Source of the DNA: Candidatus Omnitrophota bacterium
Lineage (GTDB): Bacteria > Omnitrophota > Gorgyraeia > Duberdicusellales > 4484-171
DNA length: 64,000 nucleotides
Assembly (NCBI GenBank): GCA_021735655.1
Contig: JAIPGM010000001.1
Span: 256,001 to 320,000, forward strand
Reading direction: 5' to 3'
Made by a program: the position numbers and the translations under genes. Below are positions 4,593-61,175 of this stretch, piece by piece. Numbering within the stretch: the stretch's first letter is position 1; each line of letters starts with the position of its first letter. The notes beneath the pieces are model-generated. The model was not told the origin of the DNA. It worked only from the letters and a program-made list of their open reading frames with translations, and searched no databases.

Positions 4593-5425
4593 AAGAGCTT
4601 GTTATTTTATACTCTGGCGGAACAGATTCAACCTGTGCCGCAGCTTTAATGGCTAAAGAGTTTGATAAGATCCATTTATTATCTTATACACGTTTTGGTG
4701 TATTTTCGATAGAAAATTCTAAAAAAAATGTCGAAAGGCTTGTAGAAAAATTCGGTAAAGATAAGTTTATTCATAAAATAATCGATGTAGATAAAATATT
4801 TCGAAAGGTATCGTATTCTAACTACATGCATAATCTTAGAAAACATAAGTTTGTTATGCTTACGATGTGTGGTTTGTGTAAAATAACTTTGCATATTCGT
4901 TCTTTAATGTATTGCTTAGACAATGATATAAAGTATGTGTGTGATGGTGTGGATAAAAGCATGGTTTTATTCCCAACCCACATGAGGGAGGTAGTTGGCT
5001 TAATCAAAGATATGTATTTTCGTTACGGAATTATCTATTCGTTGCCAGTATATGAATGTGGCACCCCTAGAAAAATAGGATATTTTGATAAATATAAATT
5101 AGATTTAAACATTTCAGAGCCAGATAATTTCGCTGTTGATTCTGAGTCGAACAATCCTACAACTGGTGAAATATTGCATAAAATGGGCATTTTTCCTTCG
5201 GATAATATTAAAGGAACAAAGCTTGATCATCAGATGCAGTATAGATGTTTTCAATTTATATTAACTTATATATTAGCACTTTGGTATTATTTGCCAAAAG
5301 ATGGTTATGAAAAATATAAGGATGTGTGTATAGAATTCTATAAAGAAAAGATAAATTATTTTTACCCTTTGTTAGATGAATATTTTAATAAAAAAGAAAG
5401 CAGTAGCCTAGCTAGATTGCGATAA
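4589..5425 (+). CDS. PP-loop ATP pyrophosphatase (adenine-nucleotide alpha-hydrolase superfamily)
   Basis: N-terminal SGGTDST PP-loop (SGGxDS), as in QueC/LarE/asparagine-synthetase-type enzymes. Cys cluster CGLCKITLH...C. Confidence 0.6.
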   Translation: MKELVILYSGGTDSTCAAALMAKEFDKIHLLSYTRFGVFSIENSKKNVERLVEKFGKDKFIHKIIDVDKIFRKVSYSNYMHNLRKHKFVMLTMCGLCKITLHIRSLMYCLDNDIKYVCDGVDKSMVLFPTHMREVVGLIKDMYFRYGIIYSLPVYECGTPRKIGYFDKYKLDLNISEPDNFAVDSESNNPTTGEILHKMGIFPSDNIKGTKLDHQMQYRCFQFILTYILALWYYLPKDGYEKYKDVCIEFYKEKINYFYPLLDEYFNKKESSSLARLR

Positions 5426-5486: not shown

Positions 5487-6464
5487 ATGAAAAATATTGA
5501 GAAAGTAAGATTAGCTTGCGCTTTACTGAGAATAAAATTATTGAAAAAAAGAATACCTTTGATAGTTAGCTGGTCGTTAACCTATAGGTGTAATCATAAA
5601 TGTTTATATTGTGGCATTTGGGAAAAAACTTCGGATGAATTAAGCAACGAACAAATTTTTTCACTTATCGACCAAATGGCGGCGGCAGGGACTCAACGGA
5701 TACATTTTACCGGTGGTGAGCCCTTATTAAGAGATGATATCGATAAGATTCTGATTTATTGTAAAAAAAAGGGAATAAGTACTGCATTGAATTCTAATGG
5801 GTTTTTGATTCCTGAAAAAATAAAATCCCTTATTAATCTCGACTTATTGTCGTTAAGCTTAGATGGGCCAGAAGCGGTGCATGATTCCATCAGAGGTAAG
5901 GGCTCTTACCAACAAGTAATGGGAGCGATAGAGGCAGCTAAGAAAAATAATATAAAAATAAAAATAATAACCGTATTGTCAAAGTTAAATCTAGGCCATA
6001 TTGATTTTATTTTGCATAAAGCGCAGGAATTGAAGATTCCGGTTACTTTCCAACCGACGACGATTTCGGTGCTTGAGGGAAGTAAGCCTAACTCCATTGC
6101 CGCTATCAAAGAAGAGTATAATCAAGCAGTTAGCTATTTAATAAAAGAAAAAAGAAAAAACAAATATATAGGTAATTCTTGTTCAGGATTAAAACATCTT
6201 TATGATTGGCCATCACCGTCAAAAATTTCCTGTGTAAATAGTCGCATTATTTGTCGTCTTGAACCTGATGGCCGTCTTTATGGATGCAATGATTATAAAA
6301 ATAAAGGCCTTGCGGTAGATTGCATAACCCTTGGCTTTAAAAAAGCTTTTGATAGCCTTGTGCCTTTTGCTTGTGATGAATGCTGGTGCGCTTCACTTGT
6401 AGAATTAAACTGTTTATTTGCCATAAAATTAGATACTGTTTTTAGTATTATCAAGTTAATTTAA
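5487..6464 (+). CDS. radical SAM/SPASM-domain protein, paralog A2
   Basis: KKRIPLIVSWSLTYRCNHKCLYC, FTGGEPLLRDDI, LSLDGPEAVHDSIRGKGSY, C-terminal CxxC/CWC cluster. Confidence 0.8.
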   Translation: MKNIEKVRLACALLRIKLLKKRIPLIVSWSLTYRCNHKCLYCGIWEKTSDELSNEQIFSLIDQMAAAGTQRIHFTGGEPLLRDDIDKILIYCKKKGISTALNSNGFLIPEKIKSLINLDLLSLSLDGPEAVHDSIRGKGSYQQVMGAIEAAKKNNIKIKIITVLSKLNLGHIDFILHKAQELKIPVTFQPTTISVLEGSKPNSIAAIKEEYNQAVSYLIKEKRKNKYIGNSCSGLKHLYDWPSPSKISCVNSRIICRLEPDGRLYGCNDYKNKGLAVDCITLGFKKAFDSLVPFACDECWCASLVELNCLFAIKLDTVFSIIKLI

Positions 6465-56945: not shown

Positions 56946-57530
56946 TTAAGCCCCGGTGTGATAGATATAAAATGCTTCATCATTGCCAACAACTGGATGT
57001 ATGCGAAAGGTTCCATTAGTTAGAATACCATTATCAAGGGTATCGTCAATTTTCTGTAATGGTTCAGCTTTTGGTGCACAAAAAACACCTGGCGTAGGAA
57101 AGCAATGGTTAGAAATTAAAATACTAAGCTCATAAGGAGCTCCATCTGCTTCGAGATCATAACAATAAAGAGCATAAATTCCTCCCCAGGGATGCATGAC
57201 CATACTACCGTCTAAGTATGGACCGTCCCAACCTCTAATCGTTGCACCAGAGGTTGCATTAACCAAAGTAGAACTATATACCGGTACCCATTCTGTTTCA
57301 TCTACGAAACCATCGGCGGGGTCATCGTCGGGAAATTCTTCTAATGGCCATTGAGCGGTATCAGCGTAATGGGATAAGATAGCAGTCTTGGTAGCTTTAA
57401 TATCAGCTATAGCCCGAGTGACTTTAGCCTTCTCAATAGCCCTGAAAGCATTAGGAGCAATGATTGCCGCTAGAATTGCAATGATAGCAATGACTACGAT
57501 AAGTTCGATTAGAGTGAATGATTTTTTCAT
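56946..57530 (-). CDS. prepilin-type (class III signal) GspG-like pseudopilin, copy 1
   Basis: MKKSFTLIELIVVIAIIAILAAI leader with Glu+5. GWDGPY and HPWGG motifs. Two Cys pairs. Confidence 0.75.
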   Translation of the reverse strand: MKKSFTLIELIVVIAIIAILAAIIAPNAFRAIEKAKVTRAIADIKATKTAILSHYADTAQWPLEEFPDDDPADGFVDETEWVPVYSSTLVNATSGATIRGWDGPYLDGSMVMHPWGGIYALYCYDLEADGAPYELSILISNHCFPTPGVFCAPKAEPLQKIDDTLDNGILTNGTFRIHPVVGNDEAFYIYHTGA

Positions 57531-57562
57531 AAAAAATTTCCTTTTGAATAATTATATCACAA
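57400..57562. repeat. direct repeat copy 1 (5' coding end plus promoter of pseudopilin gene); period 700 bp
   Basis: 57481-57562 differs from 58181-58262 at one position; flanking ~80 bp about 75% identical. Confidence 0.85.
57551..57559 (-). promoter_or_regulatory. extended -10 element (TGATATAAT on minus strand) plus AAAGGAAA RBS for pseudopilin copy 1
   Basis: Reverse complement reads TGTGATATAATTATTCAAAAGGAAATTTTTTATG. Confidence 0.5.
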
Positions 57563-57607
57563 CAGGAAGAGGTAATTTAATAGGGTAATTTGCTGTTTGC
57601 CTAAATA

Positions 57608-58234
57608 TTATGGAGTATAGCGATCGTCATAATCCCAAAATAATATCCAGTGAATATCAGACATTGACCCTCCGGCTGATCCGCGAACATTACCGGTATT
57701 GAGCGGCCAATCTTCGTCATCATCCACCATAGTGTCTAACTTTTTAGCAGCACTCTGTGGCATTCGACAGGTACTAGGATTAATAACGCCTTCAACGTAA
57801 GGATAACAATAATTATCTATTTCTAAAACTAATTCTTCTATGCCATTTACCGGATCGCTATAATCTTGCCAACAAGTAAAAGCATATTGGCCTCCCCAAG
57901 GATGCATTCCGGGAGTCTTTTCCACATAAGGTCCATCCCAGCCTGGCCAGGTTGCTGGTGCCCAATGCAGAGTAATATTGAGAGGATTTGTGTCTAAAGG
58001 GTTTTGACCTGGTAACAAGTGCATTTGCGTACCAGTGTAGCCATCCATAACTTTACGTCCAGTATCAGCATAAAGAGCACCAACTGAGGTTTTAAGAACT
58101 CTGGAATCAGCAATTACTCTGGCAACTTTGGCTTTTTCAATGGCCTTAAAGGCATTAGGAGCGATAATTGCTGCAAGGATAGCAATGATAGCAATGACTA
58201 CGATAAGTTCGATTAGAGTGAATGATTTTTTCAT
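57608..58234 (-). CDS. prepilin-type GspG-like pseudopilin, copy 2
   Basis: First ~45 aa nearly identical to copy 1, then divergent. GWDGPY and HPWGG motifs. Confidence 0.75.
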   Translation of the reverse strand: MKKSFTLIELIVVIAIIAILAAIIAPNAFKAIEKAKVARVIADSRVLKTSVGALYADTGRKVMDGYTGTQMHLLPGQNPLDTNPLNITLHWAPATWPGWDGPYVEKTPGMHPWGGQYAFTCWQDYSDPVNGIEELVLEIDNYCYPYVEGVINPSTCRMPQSAAKKLDTMVDDDEDWPLNTGNVRGSAGGSMSDIHWILFWDYDDRYTP

Positions 58235-58262
58235 AAAAAATCTCCTTTTGAATAATTATATC
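58100..58262. repeat. direct repeat copy 2
   Basis: See copy 1. Confidence 0.85.
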
Positions 58263-58263
58263 A
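58255..58263 (-). promoter_or_regulatory. extended -10 element (TGATATAAT) plus AAAGGAGA RBS for pseudopilin copy 2
   Basis: Same element, lying inside the duplicated block. Confidence 0.5.
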
Positions 58264-58289
58264 CGATAAGATGGATTTAATAGTGTAAT

Positions 58290-59375
58290 TTACCTTATTA
58301 GGCGCAATCCGGTTACGCCGATAGTTAAAAAGAATAGTGGCGCCATCCAAGGGCTAATCATTGGCAGAATAATGCCTGATTTTCCTAAAGCAACGCTAAA
58401 TGAAGAGATAAAGTAGTAGATAAAGATAAAGATAAACCCTACCCCCAAGGAAGTAAGGCCAACCTTACGTTTTTTAATTTCTAGAGCAAAGGGTAGAATT
58501 CCGATAACTAAGAAGAAATGGGAGAAAGGCTCGACTAATTTTTGGTTATAGTGAATGATTAATTCTTTTAGTTTTTCTTGTGAGCCGATTTTTTTTAACT
58601 GATCTATTTCACGTTGTAAATCATTGAGAGGAGTGAATTCCAGGAGAATACTTTTTTTAAGTAGAAGTTCCTGAGGGTTTTCAGCTAAGGGAATAGGCTT
58701 TTTGTCCAAGTTTTGGCTGTTGATGCTTTTACCATAGCGGTCAAAGGTATTTTCTTTAACTAATGTAGCGGTCCACTGTTCATTTTTATAGTAGATAGTT
58801 TTACAGATTATTTCTTTTATAAAGTCACCTTCTTTGTCTTCTTGAAAGATTGCAACATCAGTTAAGATTTTTTCACTTGGTGAAAATTCCCGGGCAAAGA
58901 AAATCATTCCACCTGAGGAGAACTTAAAGTTTCGCTCAAGCGAAGATCCGGAGAGGTCTTTTTTTATGAAGTTTCTTTTAATTTCTTCAACTTCTCTTTG
59001 AGATTTAATCAGTACTTTTTCTTGAAGGTAGAAGGCGCCAGAGGAGACAACAATTGAAAACAAAATCAGCGGCAAAGACAGGGACATAATGCTTACTCCG
59101 GCTGAGCGCATTCCGGCAATTTCGTTACCCCGATTGAGTTCCCCTAAGGTATAAAGCATACTGATCAGGAGTGCAAAAGGGCTTACCCATTTGAAGATCC
59201 AAGGAATCATACTTAGATAATAACGCACGAGCATTAGAAATGGTATTTTTGATTTTAGGATATCGGCAAGATTACTGAAGGTATCAATGACAAAGAAAAG
59301 ACCGATAAATATGGCTAGGATAGAAATATATCCTAAAACAGCACTTTTTAAAGTATATTTATCGAGAATGCGCAT
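58290..59375 (-). CDS. lptG: LPS export ABC permease (YjgP/YjgQ family), LptG-like
   Basis: 6-TM permease with large periplasmic beta-jellyroll insert. Pairs with the upstream paralog. Confidence 0.65.
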   Translation of the reverse strand: MRILDKYTLKSAVLGYISILAIFIGLFFVIDTFSNLADILKSKIPFLMLVRYYLSMIPWIFKWVSPFALLISMLYTLGELNRGNEIAGMRSAGVSIMSLSLPLILFSIVVSSGAFYLQEKVLIKSQREVEEIKRNFIKKDLSGSSLERNFKFSSGGMIFFAREFSPSEKILTDVAIFQEDKEGDFIKEIICKTIYYKNEQWTATLVKENTFDRYGKSINSQNLDKKPIPLAENPQELLLKKSILLEFTPLNDLQREIDQLKKIGSQEKLKELIIHYNQKLVEPFSHFFLVIGILPFALEIKKRKVGLTSLGVGFIFIFIYYFISSFSVALGKSGIILPMISPWMAPLFFLTIGVTGLRLIR

Positions 59376-60447
59376 ACTTATAGATAAGAGAAACTCCTAA
59401 AAGCATAATTATAAAACTGGATAGCCAAATTCCGATCCAAGGGGTTACTATTTGACGTTCGATTAAGGCTTTACCTAGTATTGAAAGCAGGTAGTAGGTT
59501 AGTGCACCTAAACAGGCAATACCGAAGTTAATCGATTTTTCCCGGTGGCGTACAACTAGAGATACTCCGAAACCTAAGATAGTGAAGGCAATGATCGAGA
59601 AGGATAGATTTATCCTTTCGTGAAATTCAGTCAGAAAATCGGTCGTTTCTATGCCTTTTTGCCGGTATTGTTTAATCTTACTGAGTAGCTCTTCTATTCT
59701 CATGTCTGAAGGTTTCTTTTCGGTTTTAGTCGGTTTTTCTTTTTCAATCGGGATATTTTTAAAGAAGATTTTAAATTCACCACGTACATCACGTTTGCCG
59801 GCGGAGTCGATGTCATGATAATAGACATCTTCCAGTTTCATTTTTAGCACGTCTTTCTCTACGATGAACTCTCCTTGTTTAGCTACGATCATTGTGGTCG
59901 CTTTTTTATTTTCCTTATCGAGCATATAAATTATGACATTTTTTAATTTATTTTCTTGCTTATCGGATACATAGATGACATGATTTTCGAAATGCTCTAA
60001 AAAGACCCCCGGCTCAATAAAGGCCGATATATTTTTCATAAGTATTTTTTTTACATTATGGTAGCGGTAGGTAAGTTGAGGCACTACCTTATCATTTAGA
60101 ATAAATAGTAGCAATGCGAAGATTGTTCCAATAATCAGAAAAATGTGTAGTATTTTAAAAGTTGAGACCCCGGCTACTCGCATGGCAATTACTTCATTGT
60201 CGGCGATTAATCGGCCCATAGATAGGAGTACACCCATGAAGAATGCTAATGGTAGGGTGTAGCGCATGAGCGGCGGGAAGGCAAATGACAACAAAGTAAA
60301 GGCGTCTTTAATATTAACGCCTTTACGAACAATCATATCTGAGAGATCAATCAGTTTGCCCATCAACAGCACGGTGCTTAAAATAAGAAGCGAGAAGATA
60401 AAAACAGTAAAGAAATCTTTAATGATGTAGCTGCGGATTATTTTCAT
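59359..60447 (-). CDS. lptF: LPS export ABC permease (YjgP/YjgQ family), LptF-like
   Basis: Same family. Overlaps lptG by 17 nt. Confidence 0.65.
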   Translation of the reverse strand: MKIIRSYIIKDFFTVFIFSLLILSTVLLMGKLIDLSDMIVRKGVNIKDAFTLLSFAFPPLMRYTLPLAFFMGVLLSMGRLIADNEVIAMRVAGVSTFKILHIFLIIGTIFALLLFILNDKVVPQLTYRYHNVKKILMKNISAFIEPGVFLEHFENHVIYVSDKQENKLKNVIIYMLDKENKKATTMIVAKQGEFIVEKDVLKMKLEDVYYHDIDSAGKRDVRGEFKIFFKNIPIEKEKPTKTEKKPSDMRIEELLSKIKQYRQKGIETTDFLTEFHERINLSFSIIAFTILGFGVSLVVRHREKSINFGIACLGALTYYLLSILGKALIERQIVTPWIGIWLSSFIIMLLGVSLIYKYAHSR

Positions 60448-61175
60448 GATTGTTGTTTAAATTGGTTTCTTACAGTTTTGGATAAAGTTAGGGCTGTGAT
60501 TATATTGGCACCTTTTTCTTTTAGGGCTTCTGAACACGCAAAAATAGTTGATCCAGTAGTGAAGATATCATCAACTAGAATAAGATTTAGGTTTTTCACA
60601 GCGTTGCTTGCGTTAAATATTCCTTTTACATTATTTTGTCTTTTAAGCCTGGCCAGTTTTGTCTGAGAAGGCCTGAATCTCGTGACACTTATTATATCAT
60701 TTCTTAGGGGAATATTGAAATGATTTGATAGGAAGTTAGCTAAGACCTCAGCTTGGTTATAACCCCTCATTTTTAGTTTATAACGGTGCAAGGGAACGGC
60801 AGTTATGCAGTGATAGCGATAAGCAGAAAATTGGATATCTTCTAGATGCTTAATTATTAGCTGAGCTAGGAGGTCACCTAAATAATCGCAATTACGGTAT
60901 TTAAATAGCTGAATTAGCTTAGTTAAGGGCTCTTTATATTCGGTTGCACTGATTGCTCGCATATAGGGGTATAGTTTAGTTTTACATTTATTGCAGGTTA
61001 ATTTTTCTGGTTCATCTATTTTTCGTAAACAATAGCGGCAAAGAGGCGGTTTTAAGAACTTTATTTTTTTATAGCAGTCATTACAGAGCTGTCCCTGATG
61101 TATTTTTTTCTCGCAGCTAAAACAGGTTAAGGGAAAAAGTAAATTCTTGGCAGTTTTTATATACTTTTTAAGCAC
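60444..61175 (-). CDS. comF: ComF-family protein (double zinc ribbon plus phosphoribosyltransferase domain)
   Basis: N-terminal CxxC x4 (CFSCEKK...CNDC...CRYC...CNKC). PRTase motif LILVDDIFTTGST. Confidence 0.75.
   Translation of the reverse strand: MLKKYIKTAKNLLFPLTCFSCEKKIHQGQLCNDCYKKIKFLKPPLCRYCLRKIDEPEKLTCNKCKTKLYPYMRAISATEYKEPLTKLIQLFKYRNCDYLGDLLAQLIIKHLEDIQFSAYRYHCITAVPLHRYKLKMRGYNQAEVLANFLSNHFNIPLRNDIISVTRFRPSQTKLARLKRQNNVKGIFNASNAVKNLNLILVDDIFTTGSTIFACSEALKEKGANIITALTLSKTVRNQFKQQS

Follow-up and report, generated by a model that had tools for sequence, protein, structure and literature searches.

Why do two neighbouring pilin genes that differ over most of their length begin with almost the same 83 nucleotides? 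We addressed this question in a 64,000-nucleotide stretch of contig JAIPGM010000001.1 (positions 256,001 to 320,000; assembly GCA_021735655.1), hereafter the window, from a Candidatus Omnitrophota metagenome-assembled genome (MAG). Here two type IV pilin-like genes, called A and B in the following, lie on the minus strand as intact open reading frames (ORFs) whose starts are 704 bp apart. Their products, MCF7907403.1 and MCF7907404.1, are annotated as prepilin-type proteins. From position −30 to +53 relative to the ATG, 82 of 83 bases are identical between the two genes in ungapped register, and the shared block runs from a putative extended −10 element through the Shine–Dalgarno (SD) leader into the coding sequence. 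An earlier note on this DNA had reported a repeat with a period of about 700 bp, the 5′ part of which, comprising the extended −10, the ribosome-binding site and the first ~15 codons, was identical save for one base. That description holds, and the coding part of the block covers codons 1–17. We consider it likely that the near-identity marks a recent, short gene-conversion tract, an event that we infer from the way identity is distributed along the two genes and their relatives.

The block, which makes up ~13% of the gene, has a sharp 3′ boundary. Its sole mismatch lies at −8, inside the SD sequence, which reads AAGGAA in A (57538) and AAGGAG in B (58242). Over the 81 nt after the block, identity falls to 70%; the earlier note had seen this decay correctly but had put it at about 75% over ~80 bp. 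Beyond those 81 nt, identity drops to 40%, the level of random sequence in an ungapped register. Codons 18–29 contain eight differences between A and B, all of them synonymous. Among codons with identical amino acids, synonymous differences number 0/16 in codons 2–17 and 13/19 in codons 18–37 (Fisher p = 1.9 × 10⁻⁵). Because synonymous sites are nearly saturated from codon 18 onward, a recent duplication cannot yield this pattern. When up to three mismatches are allowed, the window contains exactly two occurrences of a 53-mer taken from the block, against a chance expectation of 0.00, and a repeat search of the window returned a wider match of 166 nt at 85% identity (57402–57567 with 58106–58271). 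Further upstream, the two genes share 16 of the 17 bases of the sequence AAATTACCCTATTAAAT, with a 4-nt indel between the copies in its spacing to the −10. Since the copy-B 17-mer starts within the lptG stop codon, the whole 55-nt intergenic region of B is homologous to that of A. Exact scans of large genome-contig and metagenome-contig collections with a 29-mer and a 26-mer from the block gave 0 matches, a result that is uninformative on copies in the source genome and in close strains.

The genes that carry this block are distant relatives. A and B are 44% identical at the protein level overall and ~30% identical after residue 40, whereas the family members P0121, P0120 and P0092 match A at 65, 60 and 56% identity and P0002, P0003 and P0004 match B at 75, 73 and 65%, all of them encoded in other genomes. 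B ranks ~97th among the database matches of A. We compared at least ~25 family loci recovered among the matches listed (L numbers below), and the closer relatives of A and B are non-syntenic: they stand alone (L001), in a triplet (L003), within a V-type ATPase operon (L005–L008) or beside a different pilin paralog (L091). These many non-syntenic locations hint at mobility of the genes. The protein comparisons indicate that A and B are anciently diverged paralogs of different subfamilies rather than fresh duplicates. Gene conversion is expected to leave a sharp boundary at silent sites, flanks that have diverged and a phylogenetic signal in conflict with the tract, and the A/B pair carries all three. 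Homogenization of the 5′ end by gene conversion, one of the options raised in the earlier note, fits the boundary, the age of the paralogs and the codon data.

Gene conversion at this locus would have proceeded by non-reciprocal homologous recombination between the direct repeats, with either the neighbouring gene or a third family member as the donor. Seed homology may have been supplied by the invariant N-terminal coding sequence, the DNA of which is held at ~70–80% identity through protein constraint. The tract is silent in the protein. Its effect is on expression signals: putative core promoter, leader and initiation region are now common to both genes, such that A and B should be transcribed and translated alike, save for one SD base. 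At that base (57538 / 58242), A and B may differ in translation strength. We regard the event as ordinary gene conversion, not as a demonstrated variation system.

Next, we considered what the block contains. Its 5′ end carries TGATATAAT, an exact match to TGnTATAAT, and in both genes the SD sequence is located 8 nt upstream of the ATG (Table 1). The degenerate motif TGnTA[TA]AAT was found within 110 nt upstream of 17/41 distinct family genes, compared with ~0.02 expected per 110 nt (~20-fold), and this family-wide enrichment makes the −10 assignment, already proposed in the earlier note, credible; activity as a promoter would follow from that assignment. A generic sigma-70 −35/−10 scan made no call at TGATATAAT, which it misses because no good −35 is present. 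The −35 region reads CTATTAAAT in A and B and CTATTGAAT in relatives, and its distance to the −10 is 18 nt in A and 14 nt in B; the upstream 17-mer resembles the relatives' −35-region motif CTATTGAAT. Given an extended −10 promoter, the −35 region probably matters little here. Among the examined orthologs of A and B that have TGnTA[TA]AAT (L089 and L091; L001 and L003), the −10 lies 5–6 nt from the ATG, and the motif is not present upstream of L005, which sits inside the ATPase operon. The 20-nt SD leader of A and B is best read as a shared derived state relative to these orthologs. Across the family, the −10 ends 5–9 nt before the ATG in 12 genes (among them those in L001, L003 with two sites, L013, L089 and L094 with four genes), a spacing that implies leaderless mRNAs in these relatives, and a leader of 20–21 nt with an SD sequence was seen in four genes, namely A, B, L013:4013 and L014:1064.

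Table 1. Coordinates of the pilin genes, the shared 5′ block and associated signals (window positions unless a locus is named)
Feature	Position	Strand	Basis or remark
Gene B, type IV pilin-like, 208 aa	57608..58234	−	ORF; MCF7907404.1 (100% identical)
Gene A, type IV pilin-like, 194 aa	56946..57530	−	ORF; MCF7907403.1
5′ block, copy B	58182..58264	−	Extended −10, SD leader, codons 1–17 and two bases of codon 18
5′ block, copy A	57478..57560	−	82/83 identical to copy B; putative gene-conversion tract
Extended −10 TGATATAAT, gene B	58255..58263	−	Sequence reading; ends 20 nt before ATG
Extended −10 TGATATAAT, gene A	57551..57559	−	Sequence reading; ends 20 nt before ATG
SD AAGGAG, gene B	58242..58247	−	Last base, 58242, is the block's only mismatch
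SD AAGGAA, gene A	57538..57543	−	Sequence reading
MKKS leader codons	57519-57530 (A), 58223-58234 (B)	−	
Upstream 17-mer AAATTACCCTATTAAAT, copy A	57575..57591	−	16/17 shared with copy B; repeat search and alignment
Upstream 17-mer, copy B	58275..58291	−	Begins inside lptG stop codon
Short-spaced −10 sites in relatives	L001:~5980-6000; L003:~5985-6000, ~5330-5350; L013:~4880-4895; L089:~4985-5000		

The coincidence of the block with expression signals raises the alternative that purifying selection on the nucleotides themselves, for example at a cis-regulatory or initiation element or at a site for a regulator or small RNA, has kept the two copies alike without any recombination. We consider this unlikely, although the block does coincide with the −10, the SD sequence and the start, and the extended −10 is a recurrent, enriched motif upstream of family genes. 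The MAGs JAHKAJ01 and CAZFML01 supply 36 within-genome paralog pairs, of which six are adjacent; in these pairs, the invariant codons F5–I17 (39 nt) differ at 3–13 positions and the 42 nt upstream at 17–32, against 0 and 1, respectively, for A/B; a block-like pattern was found in 0/36. Codon choice is different in the orthologs of A (L089, L091) and of B (L001, L003, L005), and by hand count the block differs from A orthologs and B orthologs alike at 5–7 of the 39 nt. Orthologs and comparison pairs thus keep the amino acids and not the codons, which indicates that there is no general nucleotide-level constraint, and the upstream regions differ as well. The 3′ edge at codon 17/18 fits no functional boundary, and in paralogs this old selection would need to have regained the identity, not retained it. 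Folding of the 5′ regions gave z-scores of +0.19 and −0.04, and an Rfam search returned only a chance-level match to rli48 (E = 0.8). With z-scores near zero and no Rfam family, a structured-RNA element was rejected.

Gene conversion also finds parallels in other arrays of the family. The array at L094:900–4450 (Ga0180009_10002966) comprises five genes with globular parts that are 26–41% identical. Two of them, 906 and 1508, share a 95-nt identical run of 5′ coding sequence, with unrelated upstream regions and globular domains of 26% identity, and in another combination, 906 and 3848, the 42 nt upstream show only 4 differences. Likewise, two genes of the four-gene array at L097:50–2700, where globular domains fall in the same 26–41% range, share a 47-nt run. 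Such mosaic 5′ identity is the expected product of occasional conversion among tandem paralogs. A bolder interpretation, which we hold to be quite unlikely, is that frequent 5′-anchored recombination moves promoter, leader and signal blocks between divergent Omnitrophota pilin genes. If true, this would constitute a form of surface variation by promoter swapping in these nanobacteria of putatively predatory or parasitic habit, altering the choice of globular domains that are expressed and the level of their expression, and A/B, L094 and L097 would be snapshots of it.

Programmed pilin variation, antigenic or in host range, with the 5′ block as an anchor joining expression signals to variable domains, would go further, and we find it very improbable. 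In its favour, the mosaic 5′ tracts of the other Omnitrophota arrays adjoin very divergent globular domains; a predatory or parasitic lifestyle involving type IV pili has been proposed for Omnitrophota (PMC10066038); and the closest homolog of A is followed, ~1 kb downstream, by an IS110-family transposase (L089:6564–7526; L090:4798–5760). The same paper presents type IV pili as important to the lifestyle and says nothing on variation (PMC10066038), and the literature on concerted evolution of pilin paralogs yielded nothing specific. Our searches for further copies, cassettes and machinery genes covered the 64-kb window, where neither DNA searches nor tblastn with the two C-terminal domains found anything beyond A and B, be it a further or 5′-truncated copy or a silent, promoterless cassette. 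Both genes are complete and each has its own putative promoter. The locus contains no recombinase and no inverted-repeat (invertible) structure; between direct repeats, a crossover merely deletes or duplicates B. The variable parts, at ~30% amino-acid identity, are too diverged to recombine. The earlier note had proposed the pair as a substrate for antigenic variation, a proposal for which these data offer no support: both genes are complete with putative promoters, the 64 kb contain no cassette and the tract lies in the constant region.

An assembly or consensus artefact of the MAG, in which the 5′ end of one copy was built from reads that belong to the other copy or to a co-occurring strain, carries an equally small probability. 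The sequence does come from a MAG, and one base differs inside the block. Against this, usual reads and the large k-mers of assembly are longer than 83 nt, neither ORF is broken or shifted in frame, each copy has flanks of its own, and like mosaics occur in assemblies made independently from other samples (L094, L097). Finally, a recent tandem duplication with very fast divergence outside the 5′ end would account for a 704-bp period that spans the upstream region and the gene, but the near-saturated synonymous sites directly after codon 17 and the presence, in other genomes, of relatives far nearer to each gene than its neighbour leave it scarcely credible, and with it the duplication and diversification that the earlier note had suggested. 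Slipped-strand phase variation was rejected, as only T6 and A6 runs lie near the ATG, and so was a shufflon or inversion switch, given direct repeats and no recombinase among the neighbours.

Several points nevertheless weigh against gene conversion as the explanation. The event is read from a single consensus sequence; the evidence is limited to the 64-kb window, and neither of the two large DNA collections contains the block. The block points to no particular donor or direction, and a lineage-specific selected cis-element would look the same within one genome. With a poor −35 that is differently spaced in the two genes (18 versus 14 nt), the case for a promoter comprises only the extended −10 and its comparative enrichment. 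Moreover, most surveyed tandem pairs of the family are without such a tract, which is not a constant family feature.

Placing the locus among known systems clarifies what kind of event this would be. Tandem pilin paralogs occur in Pseudomonas stutzeri (pilAI/pilAII) and Synechocystis (pilA1/pilA2). Like these, A and B are adjacent, on the same strand and complete, with a conserved alpha-1 helix and divergent globular domains; unlike these, they come from different old subfamilies, share a promoter, SD and 17-codon block that is identical save for one base, and belong to a family with four-residue, mostly Ser-ended leaders. In Neisseria, one expression locus, pilE, receives variable-region sequence from silent, promoterless, 5′-truncated pilS cassettes. 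A and B would share with that system non-reciprocal recombination between pilin copies, whereas they are complete genes with putative promoters, the tract lies in the constant 5′ part, and no cassettes occur in the window. The tufA/tufB genes exemplify concerted evolution of bacterial paralogs through short-tract gene conversion. As in tufA/tufB, the A/B tract is short, sharply bounded and protein-silent with diverged flanks; it differs in taking in the promoter and leader, and in joining paralogs that are 44% identical, not nearly identical.

We then asked what the two proteins are. Both exceed the cut-off of the prepilin N-terminal methylation profile PF07963 N_methyl (28.3 bits for A and 28.1 for B; cut-off 21.2) and of TIGR02532 (22.8 and 22.5 bits; cut-off 16.3). 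They fall below the cut-off of the GspG equivalog TIGR01710 (52.5 and 37.7 bits; cut-off 88.85). PF08334 T2SSG matches A at 21.9 bits, just over its cut-off of 21, and B at 11.7. PF22434 PilW_C scores 15 bits for A, below the cut-off of 27, and is unlisted for B; the database's precomputed annotation gives this domain for most family members. Of the earlier description as tandem pseudopilins with a class III signal, the pilin-like character with its N_methyl match therefore stands, and the pseudopilin assignment, with GspG below cut-off, is not established. A and B resemble GspG (TIGR01710, PF08334; PDB 5wda, 4lw9, 3fu1) in the class III-type N-terminus and the W-x-G-P-Y and PWG motifs. They differ from it in scoring below the equivalog cut-off, in size (194–208 aa versus ~140), in lacking a type II secretion system (T2SS) gene context, and in that the best structural matches of the B model are Clostridioides difficile PilW and PilA1.

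The AlphaFold2 model of B (predicted local distance difference test score 89.9, predicted TM-score 0.84) places a helix of residues 7–58 against a beta sheet, and Foldseek searches of the PDB gave top matches that were all pilins: C. difficile PilW and PilA1 and TcpA with probabilities of 0.8–1.0, and EpsG with 0.3–0.5, at modest TM-scores of 0.30–0.44. The model shows the pilin fold, in which an antiparallel beta sheet packs against a long N-terminal helix. Consistently, a 34-homolog profile matches the solved pilins geopilin, PilE, PilA and GspG (5wda) over residues 5–117, and the family profile aligns to GspG residues 1–102.

Both proteins begin with the four-residue leader MKKS, followed by F(+1), E(+5), a hydrophobic alpha-1 helix and a globular beta domain of GspG/PilA-like type; the hydrophobic segment (alpha-1N) comprises ~21 residues, and FTLIELIVVIAIIAILAAIIAP is invariant in the family. 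The leader departs from the canonical Gly(−1) form in having Ser at −1, and there is no alternative upstream start. Bacterial pilin leaders are described as 6–26 aa long and invariably Gly-ended (PMC4471445). Across the members P0001–P0149 (n = 145), residue −1 is Ser in 71, Gly in 44, Ala in 11 and V, T, N, F, H, C, L or Y in 19, and in most members the leader is 4–5 residues long. The short, Ser-ended leader suggests a prepilin peptidase of relaxed specificity or different processing.

The family is large, with 1684 matches at E ≤ 1e-3, and its named entries are nearly all Omnitrophota. Its invariant positions are FTLIELIVVIAI..LAA..APN, A31 and EKAK, with four further positions there conserved at ≥90%. 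Conservation extends to W-GWDGPY, P-W-G-Y, two Cys and an acidic ID...DDG loop, and the W-x-G-P-Y and PWG motifs align with T2SSG profile positions 44–77. GWDGPY, HPWGG and the Cys pairs had been noted earlier as the features that A and B share in otherwise divergent downstream parts; they are shared, but as signatures of the family and not of this pair. Up to six full-length members were found in MAGs labelled 'uncultured Planctomycetia' (L010, L011, L012, L014, L027; CAZNWL01, CAZFML01), which reflects either taxonomic misassignment or a family that reaches beyond Omnitrophota.

On the minus strand, the gene order is comF-lptF-lptG-B-A. The pilin pair closes this gene run and is convergent with alr, with only 9 nt between the alr stop and the A stop. 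The strand switch falls exactly at the pair: ORFs of ≥110 aa in window positions 1–56936 are essentially all on the plus strand, and 56946–61175 is a minus-strand run. A scan of the locus found no intrinsic terminator between or after A and B. Within the window, we found no Walker motif of a GspE/PilB-type ATPase, no third pilin-like N-terminus, and no T2SS or type IV pilus machinery. Processing by a prepilin peptidase and assembly into filaments would depend on machinery encoded elsewhere, and type IVa pilus (T4aP) genes are reported from most Omnitrophota (PMC10066038). In one recurrent arrangement, a relative of B (65% identity; L005:6001–6606, likewise L006, L007 and L008) lies between the V-type ATPase B- and D-subunit genes, with gaps to the ATPase genes of 16 nt and 4 nt in L005, on contigs of several independent samples. 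Co-location of T4aP loci with atypical F-type ATPases has been described in Omnitrophota (Seymour et al., PMC10066038).

The probable A/B conversion is in itself a routine evolutionary event that opens no long-standing question, and the Ser-ended four-residue leader, the leaderless-type promoters and the pilin embedded among V-ATPase genes are arguably more unusual than the A/B repeat. It does illustrate that expression signals, and not just coding sequence, can be homogenized between old pilin paralogs, which would couple their expression. The locus further points to a large, little-described Omnitrophota pilin family with tandem arrays, very divergent globular domains, non-canonical leaders and putative promoters with a consensus extended −10, often of the leaderless type. 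Omnitrophota are thought to live attached to other cells, and these filaments are probably central to that way of life.

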